DNA of 64,000 nt from an uncultured Desulfomonile sp. (GCA_964542775.1 CAZIVV010000010.1:1-64000); one strand, 5' to 3'. Counted from the stretch's first letter, positions 51,571 to 62,316 are shown. The notes: generated from the sequence alone by a model not told the origin. Translations and numbers: made by a program.

Positions 51571-53991
51571 ATGTCACACATCCAGACCGCCAATCAAAGG
51601 GGGTACGGAATGACAGAAACGAACAGGCCAGACCGCCGGACAAGGAACAGGATAGATTTTCTTGTGGATTTTAGGTGGCTACTCGTCAGCATCGTGGCAA
51701 TCCTGACCTTGATCCTTGCTTTTTTCATCCCGAACATCCAGGTTGATCCGACCCTGAAATCGGTGCTGGTTACGTCATCCGATTCATTCCATGAATATGA
51801 CCACTTCCGGAAATTCTTTGATGACGATGAATATGTTGTGGTGACTGTAAAGTCTGCTAGCGGGGTCCCGGACCCCAGCATCCTGGCCTCTGTAGATCAG
51901 ATCACAAAACAACTGAGTCGGGTTGACGGAATCCAGGAGGTTTTAAGTCTTACGAACTTCAAGGTTTATCAGAAACAGGGGCAAAAGCTGTCAAACCAGC
52001 TGTTCGTTGAGAGCCAGGGAGGCCAGCTGACCTTACCTGAACAGACAAAATTTGAAAATGTCAGAAAAGCTATTCCAGTGAGCGATCTACTACTTTCAAA
52101 GGATCATTCGACCCTCGGCATTCTGCTGCGCATCCATGAAAAGTGGAAATTTGATCACAAAACAAACGAAAGAATTTTGTCTGGCGTCGAGGAAATTGTC
52201 AAATCCGGTCTTTCCGCCGGATCCGAATACAGGATAGTCGGTCAGGCGGTATTGCGTCAGGCTATCTTGAAATACACGCTCAAAACGGCCCTGATATTCG
52301 GCATACTTTGTACGGTGATCTGTCTTGCTGTCACTGGCTATGTTTTCAGAAACATCACGGTGACAGTGATGACTATGGCAATACTGGGTCTTTGTGTTCT
52401 CTGGGTAATCGGAATTATGGCAGCGCTAAACATCCCGTTGAATGCCACCACCAGCCTGTCTTTTGGTTTGATCCTGATTACTACCCTTGAACTTGTCATA
52501 CACATGGTTACCAGATATAACCAGTTTCATCAGGAAATTCCAGACAGAATCCTTGCTGTAAAACAGACCGTGCGCTATCTTGCGCGACCTTTTTTCATCT
52601 GTTCAGCCACTACAGCTGTAGGTTTTGGCTCATGCATGATCACATCCATCCCGATGGTTTTTCAGTTGGGGTTGATCATGTCATTGGGGGTGACGATTTC
52701 CCTGTGTCTTGCCATGATTCTTGTCCCAACGGTCATCATTTCCCTAAAATCCATGGACTTGAGGGTGATTGATCGTGAGAGTCAGGATGGAGCTTCGAGG
52801 CTGCTTGAATATGTAATGGACTCGATTCGAAATCACTACCGTTTTTTCACCGCGGTTGGTTTTGTGGCGATCGTGATCATGTTATCCGGCGTGCCCCTGA
52901 TTAGGTCCGACCCACAAATACTGCATCAACTTGGGGAAGCCCGTCCTGAAGTGAAAGACGTGAGATACGTCGAATCTAATCTGGCCAGTATTCATTCAGT
53001 CCAACTGGTTCTGGAATCCAAAGACGGGGCTTTCAGGAAAACCCCAATATGGCAAAAAGTGGCTGAACTCGAAGCCAGACTCGGCGACATTCCTGAGGTA
53101 GTCTCAACGGATTCGCTTCTTTCCTGGCTCGAATATGTAAGAAACATTGTGAGCGCGCAAAAGGATCAGACATCTGACTTGTTCGCCAATCCCGGAATAC
53201 TGCCGCAGATGCTGTTCGTGACATCTTTTACCTCCGATGGCAAGCGACTGATAAGAAAGCATATTGATGATGAATATAATCGTCTGAATATTACTGTCAG
53301 GATCAATAATGACCCTTCTGTCCCGGTGATGGACACCATAAACAGAATAAAATCGCAAGCTCAGGAGGTAATGAAAGACAGCGCCTCGGTTTCTGTGACA
53401 GGTGAACTTGTTGTTATCGCCGCTCAGGGTGATGATCTCATCCGATCGGAAATTGAGTCGATGTTTGTAGCCATAGCGATAATCTCCATGCTCATGATGT
53501 TACAAATGAACTCGGTCAGTTTTGGCCTCATAAGTCTCATCCCAAATGTTCCGCCGGTAGCCACCGTCTTTGGAATAATGGGTTTCATGAAGATACCCCT
53601 GGACGGAGTGACGGTATTTGCGGCTACGGTGGCGGTTGGATTGGCTGTGGACAATACAATTCAGTTTGTAACACAGTTGAAACGTGAAATCAGACTCAAC
53701 CCGGGGATGGATGTTGAGGCCTGTGTGTTCAACGCATACCGTCTGGCGGCAAAACCCATGGCCTCCTGGTCAATTGTCACAGTGCTGGGTTTCCTGGCTA
53801 TGCTCGCCACCCCTTTTCAGGCAGCGGTTTCTTTTGGCATACTGGTTGCCTCAGCCGTTTTTATGGGAATCTTCGCCGATCTGATTTTCATGCAGTCCAT
53901 GATTCTGACTTTTCCGTCAATCAAAAACATCATTCAACGGATTGTGGAGAAGGAGAATCTGGCGGAGAGAAATGCCGAACTCACTACATGA
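51571..53991 (+). CDS. MMPL/RND-superfamily transporter (two 6-TM bundles, two periplasmic loops)
   Basis: Duplicated topology: TM1, a large loop and five TM helices, twice over. The length and hydropathy match MMPL-family lipid exporters (HpnN-like). Confidence 0.8.
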   Translation: MSHIQTANQRGYGMTETNRPDRRTRNRIDFLVDFRWLLVSIVAILTLILAFFIPNIQVDPTLKSVLVTSSDSFHEYDHFRKFFDDDEYVVVTVKSASGVPDPSILASVDQITKQLSRVDGIQEVLSLTNFKVYQKQGQKLSNQLFVESQGGQLTLPEQTKFENVRKAIPVSDLLLSKDHSTLGILLRIHEKWKFDHKTNERILSGVEEIVKSGLSAGSEYRIVGQAVLRQAILKYTLKTALIFGILCTVICLAVTGYVFRNITVTVMTMAILGLCVLWVIGIMAALNIPLNATTSLSFGLILITTLELVIHMVTRYNQFHQEIPDRILAVKQTVRYLARPFFICSATTAVGFGSCMITSIPMVFQLGLIMSLGVTISLCLAMILVPTVIISLKSMDLRVIDRESQDGASRLLEYVMDSIRNHYRFFTAVGFVAIVIMLSGVPLIRSDPQILHQLGEARPEVKDVRYVESNLASIHSVQLVLESKDGAFRKTPIWQKVAELEARLGDIPEVVSTDSLLSWLEYVRNIVSAQKDQTSDLFANPGILPQMLFVTSFTSDGKRLIRKHIDDEYNRLNITVRINNDPSVPVMDTINRIKSQAQEVMKDSASVSVTGELVVIAAQGDDLIRSEIESMFVAIAIISMLMMLQMNSVSFGLISLIPNVPPVATVFGIMGFMKIPLDGVTVFAATVAVGLAVDNTIQFVTQLKREIRLNPGMDVEACVFNAYRLAAKPMASWSIVTVLGFLAMLATPFQAAVSFGILVASAVFMGIFADLIFMQSMILTFPSIKNIIQRIVEKENLAERNAELTT

Positions 53992-54122
53992 TCCAGGGCT
54001 TTGGAGGATGTCTTGTCGGTGTTGAGTTTGATAGCCGGCAGGTCTCGGGAGGCCAAAGCCCTAATCGTTGCGGAACACCTCAGGAAAGAAAGGTAGTTTG
54101 CGCGACTTTCAAGAGAGGAAAC

Positions 54123-54914
54123 ATGTCAGCAATTCGTGGATGTTTTGTTGTTACGGTGTTGGTGGTTTTATTTCCCGTACTTGGCAGCCTGTCTGCTGCC
54201 CTGACTGGAGCAGAGATCATAGAAAAAGCCCAAAAAAAGCAATTAGGCGAATCTTTCAGAGCGTCTCTGGAAATTCAGACTTTTTCAGGAAACCGTAAAA
54301 CCTCCCAACATCAGATGTGGATGATGGGACAGGTGGAAAAAGATTCGACTACTGTTTTCATAGATTTCGTAGAACCCGAGGATTCAAAGGGTGTGAGAAT
54401 TCTTTGCATACTGAGACAGGAAAAGGATCCAGAGGCCTACATGTATCTGCCGGCTACAGGACAGGCTTTTCCAATAGATGTCCGGGATCCGACCACTGAA
54501 ATAGCAGGAACGGGACTCACCATGGCCGATTTTCAGCCCTTAATTCCGGAGAAGGGCGATACAGCGACTTTGTTGAGGGAGGAGAATCTAGACGGTAAGC
54601 CCAGTTACCTGATTCAGATAACAAAAGCAGATTCCGGACAGTCGCGCTATGTCTGGATTGAAAGGGATTCCCTTGATCTGTTAAGGCTGGAAGAAAAAAG
54701 TAAAGATGGGAAAATACTTCGAGAGATGAGGGTCGTCGAATTTTTTGATACCCTCGATGGAAAGCGATACCCGAGAGAAGAGGAAATCGTACTGCCCACA
54801 AAAGATGTAAGAATAAAGATCCGTCAGGAAAACGCCGTCTTTGGAATCACTATTCCTGAGGAACTCACCAATCCAGCGACCTTTGGAAATTTCAAGTGGC
54901 AGGTTCAGTTCTAG
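54123..54914 (+). CDS. Outer-membrane lipoprotein-sorting (LolA-like) protein partnering the MMPL transporter
   Basis: Start set at MSAIRGCFVVTV, a signal peptide. The ~260-aa beta-rich protein follows the MMPL gene directly and overlaps it, a conserved pairing. I assign the family from context and composition, not from a hard motif. Confidence 0.55.
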   Translation: MSAIRGCFVVTVLVVLFPVLGSLSAALTGAEIIEKAQKKQLGESFRASLEIQTFSGNRKTSQHQMWMMGQVEKDSTTVFIDFVEPEDSKGVRILCILRQEKDPEAYMYLPATGQAFPIDVRDPTTEIAGTGLTMADFQPLIPEKGDTATLLREENLDGKPSYLIQITKADSGQSRYVWIERDSLDLLRLEEKSKDGKILREMRVVEFFDTLDGKRYPREEEIVLPTKDVRIKIRQENAVFGITIPEELTNPATFGNFKWQVQF

Positions 54915-56142: not shown

Positions 56143-58773
56143 TTAGACTGCCATGACAGAATTGTGAATGACAAAACCAAATGTAACGGCTACCAGAATC
56201 GCAAAGATCACATGTGGAGTAATGCCGACAATTCTGTTCAGCTTCCTGGCCGGCGCCGCAATACCAAGTCGGTATATGGTGATGAGAGTCCACACGAGGC
56301 CCAGCAGAACAATCCCCATCTGGAAAACGTAGATCATCTGGACTGAAACAGCTCTTCCCTCCGGAATGGAAACTGAGTTGATTCCAAGATATTGAGCCAT
56401 TAATCCAAGTATCTGAGGCCCGGTGGTAAAGAGATAAAACGCGTGGAATGCCAGAAACGACATTGCGGTAAGTGGTAACAGCGCAAGGGCAAACCGCGAA
56501 TAATTCTCCCAGAATCGTTCCTTGAAGAGACGGTGAGAAAACCCTACGGCAAGCATTGAAAACAGATTTACCAGAGCGATCAGTCCTGTAAAGACAATTG
56601 TAAATCTTAACATGAAATTGTCAGGCGCCCACGAAAGCATTTGCCCGAACCATGTTCCTCGGGTCAGAATGTCTCCGAGCAGTCCACCGATGAGTCCAAG
56701 GACCAGGAAGCCTGTTCCCGCCCGGACATATCGAACTTCACCAAGTTCGTATCCAGGTATTCTAAGGTTAAGCCTGATAGCCGAGTGTGGGCAGTTCTTT
56801 ACGCAATTACCGCAGAGTTTGCAGAATTGATTGCTATGAAGCGTGGCTACCACCTGTCCGAAAGGGCATCCCTCAGCCTTATCTGTCCCCAAATAACATT
56901 CCTGTGAATGGCAGCTCGATAGACATACGGCGTTATCTGCCCTTAACTCGAGCATCGATACTCGTGCAAGCAAACCGTTCATGCCGCCAAGAGGGCAAAT
57001 ATATCTGCACCACGCCTGTCGCGCCCATATGGTATTAAGAGCAAAGGCTATGACGAACATGCTCAGGAGCAGGAGTCCGAGGTTGAAAGGAGAACTGCGT
57101 ATATCAGTGGCGCATTCCATCCAGATGATCGACAGTATTCCTCCTGCTATCAGAAAGTCACTTCTCGTGGTAAGCGCAGCGGGGAAAGGGATCTCGAGCG
57201 ATACAATCCTCTTGGCCAGTTTGCTCAGTGCTCCGATAGCGCAAACACTGCAAAGGATTCTTGCTCCAAAAAGGGCTCCTATTATCATACCGGGCCATGC
57301 CAGAGACCACATGACCATTGCGGCCAGGTTTTTTGATGGATCTGGGGGCCCCAGAAAAAGCATTAGCAAAATGGCGATAAAGATAGGAACAAAAGCGCTT
57401 TGCAGAATTGCCGGAAAGAGGGGACTTTTTAACGCCTGATAGATGGGTTTAATTTGTAGCAGATTGTATTTGGCCTTTGATTGGGTTTTTCTCGGGTCAA
57501 GTATGAGGTCCTGACGTCTGACAAATTCTCCTGGGGCGACCACAACGGCCTGTCTCATCGCGTTTGCCAATTCCAGGTCGTTGCCCGGCCATGAGTAGTC
57601 CATCATGGCCTTTAGCGTCAGATCGGCCAGCTTCGGAATCCTTGTGTTCATCTCTCTGGCATAATGCTCAAGATAACTTTGAGCCAAAGAAGGTATCAGT
57701 TCACGCCTGTCTCTGAGTGGCGGAATGACCAGGGATTTGTCCGAAAGTTCAAATAAAAGCGGGTTTGTTTCAGGATCATATTTTGAGGGGTGAAGATTTG
57801 TGTGACATATAAGTCTGAAACTGACCTGAATTGGCTTATTACTCCCAAGGGGGCAGTAGACACCAGTCTTCAGGGCGTCGAGAAGTTTTTGCTGGGTGAC
57901 AGCGGTCAGATACTGGGCCCCTCTTATAAAAAGAGCGCCATTCCTTGCCAGTTCAATGTAGCCTCTGGAAGTTTTGATGGCGCCCCTCTGACTGGTCGTC
58001 TGGTATCCGAAAAGGAACTTTATCTGCTCAATAGTCCTGGAACCTTCGTCTGCGACCGTTGCCCCTCTTCGGGTGAGGAAAAATGAACTTGAATGGATGG
58101 TTCTGGCAGTGACAGGAACCAGGACTTCTTTGAAGTCATCGGCCGCGTCAAAAATTGCGTATGCCAGTATGTCTTTCCCGACTCCCCTCTCTCCTGATAT
58201 GATGACTGAATCATTGGAGCATGCCAAGTCACAGAAGCGCGACTGGACATCCTGGGGTAGTCCTGGGTGAGCGGGATATGCGCAGGTAGCCGGAACCCCG
58301 GGGTCATGCTTTTTTACCGGTGTGGCAAAGTCGTCGCGATCTACCTTGACCGTTTTTCTGCCCAGAGATTTCAACAGCTCAACCGTGAAATCCGGAATTT
58401 CACGCAGTATTCTCTGAAAACGGTCTATGGATATTTCAAGGAAGCGACAGTCGTCCGCAGCGATTAATGTAGCCGCCGTTGGCCACGACCTTCCCGTAAG
58501 AAACGCAAGGTCTCCAAAAACATCCCCAGGTTCAAGAGAGTCAAGGACAACCTCTTGCGCGGCTCTGTAACCCATAGACAATTCAGCTTTGCCAGACAAA
58601 AGACAGAGGATTCGTTGCTGTCCTTCGGGTCCACTCGAGATGATTTCACCTCGGGTAAAGTCCAGAACCGAAAACTTTTCCGTCAAAAGAGGCTGAAAAA
58701 TGACCGGAGCCTTTTGGAGGGAATCAGCTACCGGTTCTGGCAGTAATATTCTGTCAGGCATTTCTCCGTACAA
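56143..58773 (-). CDS. Fusion protein: cNMP-binding domain + degenerate sigma-54-activator-like AAA+ domain + C-terminal membrane polyferredoxin (NapH/MauN/CcoG-like) domain, with no DNA-binding HTH
   Basis: Crp-like cNMP fold (GDVFGDLAFLTGRSWPTAATL). AAA+ region with an altered Walker A (GERGVGKD), no GAFTGA loop (FGYQTTSQRGA), Walker B DE replaced (GALFIRGAQY), but a retained WPGNDLELAN. Six or more TM helices carry the Cys clusters CRYICPLGG, CLSSCHSQEC and CKLCGNCVKNCP. Confidence 0.65.
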   Translation of the reverse strand: MYGEMPDRILLPEPVADSLQKAPVIFQPLLTEKFSVLDFTRGEIISSGPEGQQRILCLLSGKAELSMGYRAAQEVVLDSLEPGDVFGDLAFLTGRSWPTAATLIAADDCRFLEISIDRFQRILREIPDFTVELLKSLGRKTVKVDRDDFATPVKKHDPGVPATCAYPAHPGLPQDVQSRFCDLACSNDSVIISGERGVGKDILAYAIFDAADDFKEVLVPVTARTIHSSSFFLTRRGATVADEGSRTIEQIKFLFGYQTTSQRGAIKTSRGYIELARNGALFIRGAQYLTAVTQQKLLDALKTGVYCPLGSNKPIQVSFRLICHTNLHPSKYDPETNPLLFELSDKSLVIPPLRDRRELIPSLAQSYLEHYAREMNTRIPKLADLTLKAMMDYSWPGNDLELANAMRQAVVVAPGEFVRRQDLILDPRKTQSKAKYNLLQIKPIYQALKSPLFPAILQSAFVPIFIAILLMLFLGPPDPSKNLAAMVMWSLAWPGMIIGALFGARILCSVCAIGALSKLAKRIVSLEIPFPAALTTRSDFLIAGGILSIIWMECATDIRSSPFNLGLLLLSMFVIAFALNTIWARQAWCRYICPLGGMNGLLARVSMLELRADNAVCLSSCHSQECYLGTDKAEGCPFGQVVATLHSNQFCKLCGNCVKNCPHSAIRLNLRIPGYELGEVRYVRAGTGFLVLGLIGGLLGDILTRGTWFGQMLSWAPDNFMLRFTIVFTGLIALVNLFSMLAVGFSHRLFKERFWENYSRFALALLPLTAMSFLAFHAFYLFTTGPQILGLMAQYLGINSVSIPEGRAVSVQMIYVFQMGIVLLGLVWTLITIYRLGIAAPARKLNRIVGITPHVIFAILVAVTFGFVIHNSVMAV

Positions 58774-58868
58774 CCCGTCTCTTCCAAATAATGCGACTGA
58801 ACAGAATTATAGCACAAGCTAACCATGGTGTCTGCCAACAGTTAGTGTTGGTGGCTGTTAAAGGAGCT

Positions 58869-59087
58869 CTATTTGCACTCCCTGCAACTATTCACAACCT
58901 TGCCGCCTTCTTTTTCACATTCTGATTTGGTGTGAAGTTTGTCACAGTTGTTCTTGTCGTGACAGCAGTAAACTTTTTGGTCCTTGACTGATTTGTTCTC
59001 ATGAGCGTTGAGAGTTGCAGAGCCGATAAAGGCCAGTATTCCGCACAGAGCCAGGAACGTTTTCATGAATCTCCTCCAAACTTTCAA
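58869..59087 (-). CDS. Small exported Cys/His/Lys-rich protein (72 aa), possible metal-binding periplasmic protein
   Basis: Signal peptide, then CCHDKNNCDKLHTKSECEKEGGKVVNSCRECK. Located 52 nt downstream of the RND pump gene on the same strand. Confidence 0.4.
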   Translation of the reverse strand: MKVWRRFMKTFLALCGILAFIGSATLNAHENKSVKDQKVYCCHDKNNCDKLHTKSECEKEGGKVVNSCRECK

Positions 59088-59139: not shown

Positions 59140-62100
59140 TCAGGAGCGATTGATTCTGTTTTCGATGGTTGAGTATAGAGCTGGCAAGACCAGCATGGTG
59201 AGCATGGTGCTTGAAATGAGTCCGCCGATGATAACCGTAGCCAAAGGTTTTTGGACCTCGGATCCCGTACCGGTAGCCAGAGCCATTGGCAAAAAACCTA
59301 AAGAGGCCACCAGGGCTGTCATCAAGACAGGCCTGAGCCGGGTAAGAGCCCCTTCAACTATCGCATCCCGCAGAGGGTTCCCTTCATCACGCAATTTGTT
59401 GATGAAAGTCACCATCACCAGACCGTTGAGTACGGCTACTCCGGACAGCGCTATGAAGCCAACTGAAGCCGATATTGAAAGAGGAATGTCTCTGAGCCAC
59501 AACGCTGCTACTCCTCCGGTCATAGCCAGTGGAACGCCTGTAAAAACCAGCAATGAGTGTCGGGCTGACCCGAACGCAGCATAAAGCAGACCAAAAATCA
59601 GCAGGAGAACTATCGGAACCACTATTTGCAATCGCTTGGTAGCCGACAGAAGCTGTTCGAATTCTCCACCCCATGTGATCCAGTAACCGGGTGGCAGCTT
59701 GATCTTTTCCGCAATCACTCTCTGGGACTCCTCCATGAAGGATCCCAGGTCACGATCACGGACATTGGCCGTCACTACTACCCGCCTTTTGCCATCTTCC
59801 CTGCTGATCTGATTTGGGCCAGTGTCAACTACCAAGTCCGCAATTGCGCCAAGTTCCACAAAATACCGGTGACTCCTGGCTTCAGAAACATTGTAGGATA
59901 CCATTAGCGGGTCAGTAGATGTCTCCCGCTGAGGCAGAGGAATGGGAAGCCTCTTGAGAGCCTCAATGTTCGTTCTCATGTTTTCAGGAAGCCTCACGAT
60001 AATGTCAAAACGACGATCCCCCTCAAAAACCAGGCCGGCGTTTTTGCCACCAATCGCAATCTCAACAATGTTCTGCACATCGCTCACGTTAAGACCATAG
60101 CGGGACATTTCCGGTCTCTTCATCCTTACGGTCAACGCCGGCAAACCTGAAACCTGCTCAACCCTCACATGTGTGGCGCCCTCGACCTTTTTGAGAACTT
60201 CGGAAACCTCTTCAGCCTGTTCAAGCATGATAGCCATGTCGTCTCCAAAGACCTTGACCGCTACATCACTCAGCACCCCTGCCAGCAAATGATTGAAACG
60301 CATCCTTATTGGCTGGCTGAACTCAAAATTTGTTCCAGGAAGTTCATTGGCTGTTTTCTCCATCTGCTTCACAAGCTCTGCTTTGGGTAGATTCGGGTCC
60401 GGCCACTGAGATCGGGGTTTAAGTATTACCGTCTTGTCTCCGATACTCGGAGGATGCGGTTCAGTAGCTATTTCTGATGTGCCAACCCTGCCGGTTATGG
60501 TTTCGATTTGGGGATAATTCTGCAGCAGTGTCTTCGCCACGCGCGATTGCAGATCCACGGCCTGTGAAAGACTGGTTTCAGGGATTCTCAGAGTGTGTAT
60601 GGCAATGTCACCTTCGTCCAGGCTTGGAACGAACTCTCTTCCCAATCGTGTGAGCGTCGCTATACTTAGAATGACCACCATGAAAGCCGTTGTTAGAACC
60701 AGGGCCCTGTTGTTTAAGGAGAAAATCAGAACAGGCCGGTAAAGCTTCTTGGTGAGGGAACTGATAACATTTTCTTTGCGGGAAACTTTCGGTTTTAGGA
60801 AAACCGTGACAGCTGCGGGAACAAAGGTGAAAGACAGCAACAGCGCTCCTGTAAGGGCGAGAAGCATCGTAAGCGCCATAGGCACGAACATCTTGCCTTC
60901 TACTCCAGTCATGGTGAGTATAGGCAAATATACAATCATGATTATTAATTCGCCAAATAACATCGGACGTCTTACTTCCTGAGACGCCTCGTGGATTATT
61001 TTAATTCTCTTGGAAAGGCTAAGTTTTTCTGATCCTTCCCTTTGCGCTTCGGAAAGTTTTCTGGCGCAGTTCTCCACTATTACCACTGCGCCGTCAATAA
61101 TGATGCCAAAGTCTATGGCCCCCAGGCTCATCAGGTTGGCCGTAAGTCTGGAGCTAACCATCCCTGTTGCGGTGAACAGCATTGACAGAGGAATGACGGA
61201 GGCGGTAATCAGCGCAGCTCTTACATTTCCCAGGAACAGGAAAAGAATGATGATCACCAGAATAGCCCCTTCGCTAAGGCTGAGCCAAACCGTGCTTATG
61301 GTCCTTTCTACAAGTGTGGTCCTGTCATAGACAGGCTTGGCCGCAACACCGGGCGGAAGGGTCTTGTTGATTTCCTCAAGTTTTTTCTGCGCCCGCTTCG
61401 CTACAACCCGACTGTTCTCACCCATTAACATGAAAACAGTGCCAAGAACAGTCTCGTGCCCGTCTTTTGTCGCAGCGCCTGTCCTGAGTTCCTTCCCAAG
61501 GCCAACCTCAGCCACATCCCGAATAAGAACAGGAATTCCCCTGACGTTCTTGACGATAATGTTTGAGATGTCATTAAGGTCGGCTACCTGTCCAGGCGCC
61601 CTCACAAGGAGTTGGCCTGCGCTACCCTCTATGTATCCTGCTCCAACGTTGGCGTTGTTAAGATTCAGAGCAGTTATGACATCCGAAAAAGTTAGTCCGT
61701 TTGCAATTAGTCTGTAAGGATCCGGAGTAATGTGAAACTGCTTGTCGTACCCGCCAATCGTGTTTATTTCCGTAACTCCCGGGGTGTTTCGAAGTTGCGG
61801 CCTTATTATCCAGTCCTGGATGGTTCTCAGGTCTGTGATTGAATATGGCGTTCCGTCAGCTTTTTGGGCATCTTTGCCGGCTTCAACCGTCCACATGAAT
61901 ATTTCGCCCAGACCTGTGGATATCGGACCCATTACCGGCTCAATTCCAGGGGGAAGCTTACCCTGTATTTCCTGAAGCCTTTCGCTTACAACCCGTCTGG
62001 CAAAGTAAACATCCGTATCATCTTCGAATATTATCGTTATGAGCGCAATCCCATACTGCGAGAGTGACCTGGTTTTCACCAGATGTGGAAGCCCAGCCAT

Positions 62101-62316
62101 TCCTGTTTCGAGCGGAAAAGTTATCCGCTGTTCAATCTCCAGAGGAGATAGTCCGCTAGCCTGAGCTGTCACCTGAACCTGGACATTGGTGATGTCTGGA
62201 ACGGCGTCTATGTTGAGTCTCGCTATGCTGTATACGCCGAGACCTGCCATGACCATGGTCAACCCGATCATTATCCATCGGTGATTAATGGAGAACTTCA
62301 GTATCTCTGATATCAT
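59140..62316 (-). CDS. Heavy-metal efflux RND transporter (CusA/CzcA family)
   Basis: 1058 aa with 12 TM helices and the two large periplasmic loops of the HME-RND architecture. Coupled to an upstream adaptor gene. Confidence 0.9.
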   Translation of the reverse strand: MISEILKFSINHRWIMIGLTMVMAGLGVYSIARLNIDAVPDITNVQVQVTAQASGLSPLEIEQRITFPLETGMAGLPHLVKTRSLSQYGIALITIIFEDDTDVYFARRVVSERLQEIQGKLPPGIEPVMGPISTGLGEIFMWTVEAGKDAQKADGTPYSITDLRTIQDWIIRPQLRNTPGVTEINTIGGYDKQFHITPDPYRLIANGLTFSDVITALNLNNANVGAGYIEGSAGQLLVRAPGQVADLNDISNIIVKNVRGIPVLIRDVAEVGLGKELRTGAATKDGHETVLGTVFMLMGENSRVVAKRAQKKLEEINKTLPPGVAAKPVYDRTTLVERTISTVWLSLSEGAILVIIILFLFLGNVRAALITASVIPLSMLFTATGMVSSRLTANLMSLGAIDFGIIIDGAVVIVENCARKLSEAQREGSEKLSLSKRIKIIHEASQEVRRPMLFGELIIMIVYLPILTMTGVEGKMFVPMALTMLLALTGALLLSFTFVPAAVTVFLKPKVSRKENVISSLTKKLYRPVLIFSLNNRALVLTTAFMVVILSIATLTRLGREFVPSLDEGDIAIHTLRIPETSLSQAVDLQSRVAKTLLQNYPQIETITGRVGTSEIATEPHPPSIGDKTVILKPRSQWPDPNLPKAELVKQMEKTANELPGTNFEFSQPIRMRFNHLLAGVLSDVAVKVFGDDMAIMLEQAEEVSEVLKKVEGATHVRVEQVSGLPALTVRMKRPEMSRYGLNVSDVQNIVEIAIGGKNAGLVFEGDRRFDIIVRLPENMRTNIEALKRLPIPLPQRETSTDPLMVSYNVSEARSHRYFVELGAIADLVVDTGPNQISREDGKRRVVVTANVRDRDLGSFMEESQRVIAEKIKLPPGYWITWGGEFEQLLSATKRLQIVVPIVLLLIFGLLYAAFGSARHSLLVFTGVPLAMTGGVAALWLRDIPLSISASVGFIALSGVAVLNGLVMVTFINKLRDEGNPLRDAIVEGALTRLRPVLMTALVASLGFLPMALATGTGSEVQKPLATVIIGGLISSTMLTMLVLPALYSTIENRINRS

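Follow-up and report, generated by a model that had tools for sequence, protein, structure and literature searches.

A widespread membrane-protein family joining a CAP-type domain and a degenerate sigma-54-activator-type AAA+ module to a nine-helix iron-sulfur module

The 64,000-nucleotide stretch of DNA analyzed here (hereafter the window) derives from an uncultured Desulfomonile sp. (GCA_964542775.1, CAZIVV010000010.1:1-64000) and carries, on its minus strand at 56143..58773, an open reading frame (ORF) for a fusion protein of unusual architecture. Read from its TTG codon, the ORF encodes 876 amino acids and matches a 100%-identical database protein (P0001); the true start is likely the ATG at 58761, giving 872 residues, because homologues begin at the equivalent of residue 5 (MPDRI...). 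Residue numbers follow the 876-residue form unless stated otherwise, and all features of the protein lie on the minus strand. The single polypeptide is ordered as a CAP-type cyclic nucleotide monophosphate (cNMP)-binding domain, an AAA+ core and lid of the kind found in bacterial enhancer-binding proteins (bEBPs), which are ATP-driven activators of sigma-54 RNA polymerase, and a membrane module of nine transmembrane (TM) helices. Profile searches place the CAP/CRP-type cNMP_binding domain (PF00027) at residues 39-124 (58402..58659; E 3e-11, 43.5 bits against a cut-off of 27.5), the bEBP-type AAA+ core (Sigma54_activat, PF00158) at residues 178-329 (57787..58242; E 2e-19, 70.3 bits against 20.2) and the AAA+ lid (AAA_lid_14, PF25601) at residues 354-434 (57472..57714; E 1.5e-15, 57.2 bits against 27). 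The nine-TM module occupies residues 456-869 (56167..57408), where the usual but not obligatory helix-turn-helix (HTH) of a bEBP would follow, and includes a Fer4_5 match at residues 566-604 (E 5e-6) and weak Fer4 matches at 648-669. No HTH_8 or Fis-type HTH match to Pfam was found in the whole ORF, even at E<=1. The initial annotation of this locus, made from the DNA alone, had proposed a fusion of cNMP-binding, AAA+ and membrane polyferredoxin parts without a DNA-binding domain; the Pfam and NCBIfam scan bears this out, returning cNMP_binding, Sigma54_activat and Fer4-family matches and supporting the AAA+ assignment. An AlphaFold2 model built from a 52-sequence family alignment has a mean predicted local distance difference test score (pLDDT) of 76.6.

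The same architecture is widespread. A search of 5.8 billion clustered proteins for full-length homologues yielded 71 protein clusters that are collinear over 60-100% of the query (most over more than 94%) at 37-100% identity, all labelled as Syntrophaceae, Desulfomonilaceae or Desulfomonile tiedjei metagenome-assembled genomes (MAGs); two 1060-residue relatives among them bear an additional GAF domain. A scan of one genome per GTDB species confirmed at least 477 stretches as relatives, and the best 80 loci, which were examined, encode proteins of ~830-930 residues and span about eight phyla, judged by record title. Thermodesulfobacteriota are represented, including Desulfobulbales isolates such as Desulfosediminicola flagellatus and Desulfurivibrio sp., together with Nitrospirota, anammox Planctomycetota, Dehalococcoidia, a Thermaerobacter MAG, Sumerlaeia, Acidobacteriota and Armatimonadota. 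Mean pairwise identity within the close family is 0.45 for the cNMP domain, 0.43 for the AAA+ core, 0.52 for the lid and 0.61 for the lid-TM linker, and in the membrane half 0.61 for TM1-4, 0.67 for the ferredoxin domain and 0.42 for TM5-9; every domain is under purifying constraint. Several Desulfomonilia MAGs carry two or more paralogues from different subclades (L008 with L031, L014 with L032, L019 with L036, L011 with L039 and L023 with L028, among others), and no second family copy was found within the 64-kb window.

This distribution bears directly on whether the protein is real. A frameshift or assembly error joining two separate genes, an outcome that the initial annotation itself had raised as its potential undoing, is ruled out by the uninterrupted ORF and by the collinear homologues in the 71 clusters and 80 species-genome loci. 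The fusion is no artefact, since full-length collinear homologues at 37-84% identity occur among those clusters; these and the 80 loci stem from many assemblies and sequencing projects. That the gene is instead a misjoined pair or a decaying pseudogene is a negligible prospect, given how widely the same collinear architecture recurs and that all of its domains are constrained.

The central module combines a well-preserved bEBP fold with a profoundly altered set of motifs. In the AlphaFold2 model the AAA+ part superposes (Foldseek) on the AAA+ domains of NtrC1, ZraR, FlrC, FleQ and PspF, with NtrC1 (3m0e_A) the best structural match (target TM-score 0.82, E 1.5e-13, 28% identity). Many NCBIfam bEBP equivalog models match residues ~175-440, albeit at about 100 bits against cut-offs of 440-800; the best of them, TIGR02915, scores 114 bits and does not pass its cut-off of 502.6. 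To survey the motifs, 63 full-length close relatives were aligned with canonical bEBPs. The Walker A motif, GERGVGKD (residues 194-201; 58171..58194), had been described as altered, a description that the alignment contradicts: the GxxGxGK signature is intact, and the family form GExGVGK[ED] (canonical bEBP, GETGTGKE) is among the best-conserved features of the family, with each of the three Gly present in 63/63 and the Lys in 59/63. A family-specific insertion of ~25 residues (226-252; 58018..58098), partly predicted to be disordered (pLDDT <50 at residues 224-237 in the 872-residue numbering), lies ahead of the L1-loop region LFGYQTTSQRGAIKTSRGY (254-272; 57958..58014), which contains no GAFTGA. 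There the GAFTGA-aligned positions read TSQRG-A, and a single Gly is conserved across the 63 relatives. At the Walker B position, ALFIRGAQ (280-287; 57913..57936), the acidic DE pair is replaced by R284-G285; the Asp position is Arg in 62/63 relatives and Lys in the remaining one, and the Glu position is Gly in 52/63. The Arg-finger region, TNPLLFELS (336-344; 57742..57768), has lost the bEBP FRxDLYYRLN sequence, its Arg being Glu, Gly or Ala among the relatives. The sensor II motif WPGNDLELAN (395-404; 57562..57591) is retained, with the Arg of WPGNxRELxN read as Leu in 56/63 and preceded by a family-specific Asp in 63/63. Apart from Walker A, the initial annotation thus read these motifs correctly: the alignment confirms the missing GAFTGA, the change of Walker B DE to RG (LFIRG) and the presence of WPGNDLELAN, and its view of a degenerate bEBP-type AAA+ module is borne out by the absence of GAFTGA, Walker B DE and the Arg finger, and by the loss of the sensor II Arg in 56/63.

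The same catalytic losses extend to the wider family. Neither a DE Walker B nor an Arg finger was present in ~85 cluster representatives or in ~45 distant fused proteins from species genomes; every fused relative examined (~130 sequences) is without a DE Walker B, and the search for a fused relative with an intact ATPase ended without a candidate in either set. The more distant fused relatives are 24-29% identical, with typical Walker B readings of VIENIE, LLKNVE and LVFTHIH, and many of them (L040-L081, P0131-P0266) keep a near-GAFTGA L1 loop such as GAFSFA, GSFSFA or GALPFA. In several, the Walker A Lys is displaced or gone (GEPGTEKL, GETGTELW). The integrity of GAFTGA defines true EBPs (PMC3162934; PMC7175178), and the Walker B Glu and Arg finger drive ATP hydrolysis (PMC7175178); by these criteria of the field, the sequence of the window protein is not that of a sigma-54 activator. 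Given that 62/63 relatives have Arg in place of the Walker B Asp and that the P-loop Gly and Lys residues are kept, the pattern looks like a change of function rather than decay, and the module may bind nucleotide or phosphate independently of Mg.

The N-terminal domain tells a different story in the window clade than in the superfamily at large. Its phosphate-binding cassette, FGDLAFLTGRSWPTAATLIA (58459..58518), is degenerate: in an alignment with CRP and PKA reference sequences entered by hand, the cassette FGDLAFLTGRSWPTAAT shows an insertion of two residues and, in the whole Desulfomonilia clade, is without the canonical Arg, whereas most, but not all, of the distant relatives sampled have a canonical cassette (FGE...PR[SA]). 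The window protein accordingly lacks the Gly-Glu ... Arg-Ser/Thr/Ala pattern even as the domain exceeds its profile cut-off. Because of the insertion and the missing Arg, cyclic-nucleotide binding in the window clade, and with it cyclic-nucleotide sensing by the window protein, is doubtful; binding by the ancestor of the superfamily is plausible. Of the cyclic-nucleotide sensor that had been proposed, the domain itself stands, and only the sensing is in doubt.

The C-terminal half is built around twelve Cys residues that are ~100% conserved across the close family, the distant fused forms and stand-alone forms of the module. Hydropathy and the AlphaFold2 secondary structure agree on nine TM helices, at residues 456-474, 483-505, 540-558, 565-583 and 685-703 (TM1-5) and 726-749, 761-779, 813-831 and 851-869 (TM6-9). 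Lys and Arg are enriched in the loops predicted to be cytoplasmic, and the periplasmic loops are 8-33 residues long; because of this charge distribution the N-terminus is predicted to lie inside and the C-terminus outside, which would put all of the Cys motifs on the cytoplasmic side. The cytochrome c fused at the C-terminal end of one relative (P0263) is consistent with a C-terminus in the periplasm. The first membrane-proximal Cys pair, CSVC (508-511; 57241..57252), follows TM2 and is 100% conserved in all groups, and the second, the CX3CP motif CRYICP (589-594, with C589 and C593; 56992..57009), follows TM4. Beyond them, ferredoxin-like Cys motifs (56788..56925) predict two [4Fe-4S] clusters: C617-x3-C621-x4-C626...C636-P (617-636) and C651-x2-C654-x2-C657-x3-C661-P (651-662). 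The plural CxxCxxCxxxCP clusters of the initial annotation are thus reduced to one canonical motif, at 651-662, the other being of the form Cx3Cx4C...CP.

What the module is related to depends on the level of comparison. The NCBIfam NapH/MauN match over residues 559-668 reaches 38 bits, TIGR02163 / NF007013 give 36.5-37.9 bits, and all NapH scores (36-50 bits) fall far short of the family cut-off of 213. With a profile of stand-alone modules, hhalign aligns the module to E. coli NapH (E 3e-15) and E. coli YccM (E 4.5e-16) over the TM2-to-ferredoxin part, starting at the first Cys motif and running through the whole ferredoxin domain. On the strength of these alignments the NapH/MauN/CcoG-like label holds for the superfamily, and not as membership of the NapH or CcoG family. 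The features that define CcoG were not found: there is no FixG_C domain, no CcoG/FixG model among the matches listed (the best 25 of 54) and no cco gene nearby; nor does the ORF have an FMN_bind match to Pfam for a flavin mononucleotide (FMN)-binding domain.

An exhaustive HMMER search with the module returned 1727 representatives of 50%-identity clusters at E<=1e-3, and 209 at E<=1e-30. The best 150 matches are mostly fused proteins of ~850-930 residues, with some stand-alone forms of 435-500 residues. Variants on the fused theme include P0233, which has an N-terminal AIM24 domain with cNMP and AAA+ parts before the module; P0158 and P0220, with cNMP, GAF and AAA+ domains; P0194, in which the module is followed by a C-terminal RsbW-like HATPase_c_2 domain; and P0263, with its C-terminal cytochrome c. 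At six loci (L127, L129, L133, L134, L140 and L143) a stand-alone module of ~450 residues lies directly downstream of a gene for a membrane-anchored DegP/HtrA-like protease (trypsin-like plus PDZ) and is convergent with a CNNM/CorC-like gene (DUF21 plus CBS), as read by eye from the sequences; MgtE is encoded upstream in two of the six. An adjacent cNMP-AAA+ gene, which a split version of the fusion would have, was absent from all 12 stand-alone-module loci examined, these six among them.

In the window the fusion gene stands, on the same strand, downstream of a resistance-nodulation-division (RND) efflux system. This comprises a CzcB/IhpB-like adaptor gene (62325-63836, minus strand), whose match to CusB reaches only E 9e-9, a CusA/CzcA-family RND pump gene (59140-62316, minus strand; TIGR00914, 1498 bits against a cut-off of 701) and, between the pump gene and the fusion gene, a conserved ORF for a 65-residue secreted Cys/His-rich protein (58869-59066, minus strand). 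The outer-membrane factor gene is not visible, the window stopping at 64000, just past the adaptor gene. After its N-terminal signal anchor the adaptor has a His/Asp-rich stretch, SADSHDHGAGCDHQHEGTNGKHGG, probably a metal-binding extension. The 65-residue ORF has a Shine-Dalgarno-like GGAGGAG, and its product begins with a stretch resembling a signal peptide, followed by a mature part rich in Cys and His (...VYCCHDKNNCDKLHTKSECEKEGGKVVNSCRECK). The ORF has no NCBIfam match and is kept at the same position in an 80%-identical locus (L001, 9683-9880); its product may serve the efflux system as a small metal-binding accessory in the periplasm. The order czcBA, 65-residue ORF, fusion gene is likewise found in this relative. 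A 107-bp gap separates the small ORF from the fusion-gene ATG and holds a sigma-70-like promoter match (CAGACA-17 nt-TATAAT with a TG extended -10; 58806..58834, minus strand; 45 nt upstream of the ATG), which at 10/12 positions is a consensus match only, in a region where the count of such sites is not above shuffle expectation. By eye, no TGGCAC-N5-TTGC match to a sigma-54 promoter was seen upstream of the fusion gene, and no sigma-54 gene or bEBP was found within the window. On the far side the fusion gene adjoins a convergent EamA transporter gene, with MMPL/LolA-like genes nearby: a gene for an MMPL/HAE3-type RND-like transporter (806 residues, weak HpnN similarity) overlaps the start of a LolA-like gene (308 residues) at 51571-54914 on the plus strand, a possible lipid or lipoprotein export pair. 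Farther off lie an 805-residue ORF (48218-50635, minus strand) with no Pfam or NCBIfam match and one hydrophobic segment near residue 620, and a gene (43791-47090, plus strand) for a 1099-residue protein with TPR repeats and a CHAT (caspase-like) domain.

The neighbourhoods of homologues are varied. An RND pump gene is found directly upstream only in the window and in the 80%-identical relative, out of ~35 Desulfomonilia loci, ~45 species-genome loci of more distant relatives and 54 metagenome loci that carry the fusion; at one more locus an RND gene is 2 kb away on the opposite strand. The initial annotation had placed the fusion gene in line with a Cus-type efflux system, and of this the same-strand pump of the CusA/CzcA family stands while the adaptor is CzcB/IhpB-like rather than CusB-like. 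The check that it had suggested, for metal efflux beside homologues, shows direct RND adjacency to be confined to the window and one close relative. Since the CzcBA neighbourhood is not conserved, the connection that it had drawn to metal efflux and cupric reduction is weak. The fusion gene behaves as a self-contained unit, with the metal-efflux association at best a local feature.

Neighbouring ORFs were clustered for 168 loci (88 from species genomes and the window, 80 from metagenomes). Recurrent clade-B neighbours look like housekeeping genes (hisD, rsmG, leuB and prs-like, from sequences read by eye), and the commonest neighbour of the 54 fused metagenome loci is an apparent cysteine synthase gene, at 4 loci. 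No NapG, nap or mau context recurs in the neighbour clusters, which were not individually screened for NapG-like ferredoxins. A gene for an Old-Yellow-Enzyme-type FMN oxidoreductase lies directly upstream of the homologue in L004 (8860-9978) and L014 (cluster c363); in L004 the database gene call leaves a gap of 22 nt, and in our own calls the ORFs abut or overlap at both loci. In one subclade (L034, the same as L007, with L036 and L037) cbiM-cbiQ-cbiO, encoding a Ni/Co energy-coupling factor importer, is directly upstream on the same strand. At L027, L028 and L031 (37-39% identity) the homologue lies directly downstream, on the same strand, of genes for a histidine kinase and an NtrC-type response regulator, the latter canonical and GAFTGA-containing, and a bEBP is also encoded nearby in L015 and L017; a functional link between the pseudo-bEBP and a real bEBP is possible in the L027/L028/L031 subclade. 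Other homologues have polyprenyl synthase and BamD-like genes downstream, a TerC gene or unrelated genes.

Taken together, we tentatively favor, as something close to an even call, a reading of the protein as a ligand- or nucleotide-regulated membrane Fe-S redox module that is unable to act as a classical sigma-54 activator. In the mechanism that we infer, the cytoplasmic CAP-type domain would bind a small ligand. The AAA+ module would probably still bind nucleotide or phosphate through its intact P-loop. It cannot hydrolyze ATP normally, having no Walker B acidic pair, Arg finger or sensor II Arg, and cannot make the classical sigma-54 contact, having no GAFTGA. By analogy with NapH, NosR and CcoG, the membrane part would be an electron-transfer or quinone-linked redox effector, set in the output position that the HTH holds in ordinary bEBPs. 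The ligand-binding domain and the dead AAA+ module could then form an allosteric or oligomerization switch through which a small ligand, and possibly also the adenylate pool, tunes the redox module. Three observations fit a redox module: its stand-alone occurrence, the varied N-terminal sensors (GAF, AIM24) that precede the AAA+ part, and the cytochrome c fusion, in which the periplasmic C-terminal cytochrome of P0263 suits both electron transfer and a C-terminus outside the membrane. The Old-Yellow-Enzyme-type oxidoreductase at two loci is counted on the same side. Other results weigh against this reading. No operon partner recurs across lineages in the 168 loci, no solved structure resembling the membrane module was found, and ligation of haem b by H777 (TM7) and H854 (TM9), which are near-invariant only in the Desulfomonilia clade and variable elsewhere, was rejected and is kept as a lead only. 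In P0194, moreover, the position of HATPase_c_2 after the membrane module fits a module that serves as a sensor input rather than as an output.

The main rival reverses the signal flow. Here the protein would be a membrane-tethered sigma-54 modulator in which the Fe-S module, the CAP domain or both sense a ligand or the redox state, after which the dead AAA+ module would act through protein contacts, either by forming mixed inactive assemblies with genuine bEBPs or by holding sigma-54 at the membrane, with neither DNA binding nor ATP hydrolysis. The clear bEBP descent of the AAA+ domain makes such contacts conceivable, as do the near-GAFTGA loops GAFSFA, GSFSFA and GALPFA of many distant fused relatives, yet the L1 loop of the window clade is unconserved and has no GAFTGA-like residues. 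Likewise, the histidine kinase and NtrC-type bEBP genes upstream at L027, L028 and L031, with the bEBPs near L015 and L017, are set against the confinement of bEBP adjacency to a few, probably orthologous loci and against a window devoid of sigma-54 and bEBP genes. The anti-sigma-kinase-like domain after the module of P0194 and the original definition of NosR and NirI as genetic regulators (PMC5928378) also speak for regulation; that the membrane module occurs alone, which implies a function independent of AAA+, speaks against it. We consider this alternative unlikely. A metal-linked role, as a CcoG-like metal (cupric) reductase or a metal/redox sensor in the service or control of the neighbouring heavy-metal RND efflux, draws on the same-strand position downstream of czcB-czcA-type genes and the small secreted Cys/His-rich ORF, on the same arrangement in the 80%-identical relative, on cbiMQO upstream at L034, L036 and L037 and the TerC gene adjoining one homologue, and on homology of the module to YccM, a CcoG homologue (PMC7558416). 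With the large majority of loci free of RND adjacency, an adaptor of the CzcB/IhpB-like (divalent-cation) rather than CusB-like kind, neither a FixG_C Ig-like domain nor a CcoG/FixG model among the matches listed, and a promoter-like site and 107-bp gap that set the fusion gene apart from the efflux genes, such a role is quite improbable. Finally, NCBI names relatives of the protein as ordinary sigma-54-dependent transcriptional activators ('sigma 54-interacting transcriptional regulator'), and Sigma54_activat and AAA_lid_14 do exceed their Pfam cut-offs; the protein nevertheless has none of GAFTGA, Walker B DE, Arg finger, sensor II Arg and HTH, and bEBP equivalog models stay at ~100 bits where their cut-offs are 440-800. 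Judged by sequence criteria this identity is refuted (GAFTGA criterion, PMC3162934; PMC7175178), and we regard it as exceedingly improbable.

A broader proposal, which is possible if somewhat doubtful, is that in a multi-phylum class of membrane pseudo-bEBPs a dead AAA+ module with its P-loop kept has been given a new role as a signalling scaffold. It could do so by either of two routes, coupling second-messenger or adenylate sensing to a transmembrane Fe-S conduit, or tethering sigma-54 or bEBPs so that respiratory redox state controls sigma-54 transcription with no DNA binding or ATP hydrolysis. A large, conserved bEBP branch that has lost all its catalytic and sigma-54-contact determinants, kept its P-loop and acquired a respiratory-type Fe-S membrane module suggests an uncharacterised regulation of membrane electron transfer, or a membrane redox input to sigma-54 networks. 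Anaerobes of environmental importance commonly carry the family, namely Desulfomonilia, Desulfobulbales (isolates too), Nitrospirota, anammox Planctomycetota, Dehalococcoidia and Acidobacteriota. Most of the close relatives that bear a name are called either 'sigma 54-interacting transcriptional regulator' or 'cyclic nucleotide-binding domain-containing protein', so that bEBP counts in these genomes may be inflated. The membrane module, which has no solved structural relative and occurs also as a stand-alone protein, would on characterisation inform the poorly understood NapH/NosR/YccM/CcoG superfamily.

Each of the domains is known singly, as are bEBP homologues lacking GAFTGA or the HTH; no description of the architecture was found in the literature, in keeping with the suggestion of the initial annotation that the family, now seen to be large, is undescribed. 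Compared with NtrC1, PspF, ZraR, FleQ and DmpR, the fusion protein has the same order of an N-terminal sensor followed by a central AAA+ core and lid, superposes on NtrC1 at a target TM-score of ~0.8 with 24-28% identity, and keeps Walker A, the LFG and PPLRxR elements and WPGN..EL. It differs from them in lacking GAFTGA, an Arg finger, the Arg of sensor II and an HTH, in reading RG where Walker B has DE, and in ending with the nine-TM Fe-S module. TyrR, DhaR, HupR and VpsR are bEBP homologues that work without sigma-54 and whose GAFTGA is defective (PMC3162934). They are like the fusion protein in having a bEBP-derived AAA+ domain whose sigma-54 contact motif is lost. However, these four are transcription factors with a DNA-binding domain, and some of them still bind or hydrolyze ATP, whereas the fusion protein is embedded in the membrane and lacks such a domain. 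FlgR, CtcC and FleT, in turn, are described as functional sigma-54 activators without a DNA-binding domain (PMC7175178, PMC3162934). The C-terminal HTH is missing from the fusion protein as well. FlgR, CtcC and FleT are soluble.

On the membrane side, a module of four TM helices with two CX3CP motifs is common to NapH, NosR and RdhC and is implicated in electron transfer linked to quinol (PMC5928378), and NosR and NirI were first defined genetically as regulators. The fusion module resembles NapH/MauN, NosR/NirI and RdhC (PceC) in its TM helices with two membrane-proximal Cys motifs, and NapH and NosR in having two cytoplasmic-side 4Fe-4S motifs after TM helices, all 8 Cys of which are invariant in the fusion family. 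It departs from NapH, NosR and RdhC in that its first pair, CSVC, is CxxC rather than CX3CP (the second, CRYICP, is canonical), that its first cluster motif is non-canonical and that it has an extra TM1 and four extra C-terminal TM helices; in addition, neither an FMN-binding domain nor a NapG/NapF partner was found, and the gene does not lie among nap, nos or rdh genes. In CcoG, Cu(II) is reduced by means of two [4Fe-4S] clusters, and YccM is a shorter CcoG homologue (PMC7558416). The fusion protein shares with CcoG/FixG and YccM a polytopic membrane architecture, Fer4_5-type helices and a pair of tetranuclear Fe-S motifs; unlike CcoG/FixG, it has no periplasmic Ig-like FixG_C domain and no ccoGHIS context, and its module is joined to cNMP and AAA+ domains. 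Cu sites could not be recognized in its sequence. What appears to be undescribed is therefore the combination itself, a widespread family in which the catalytic and sigma-54 determinants of a bEBP have been lost, the P-loop has been kept and a respiratory-type Fe-S module has been fused.

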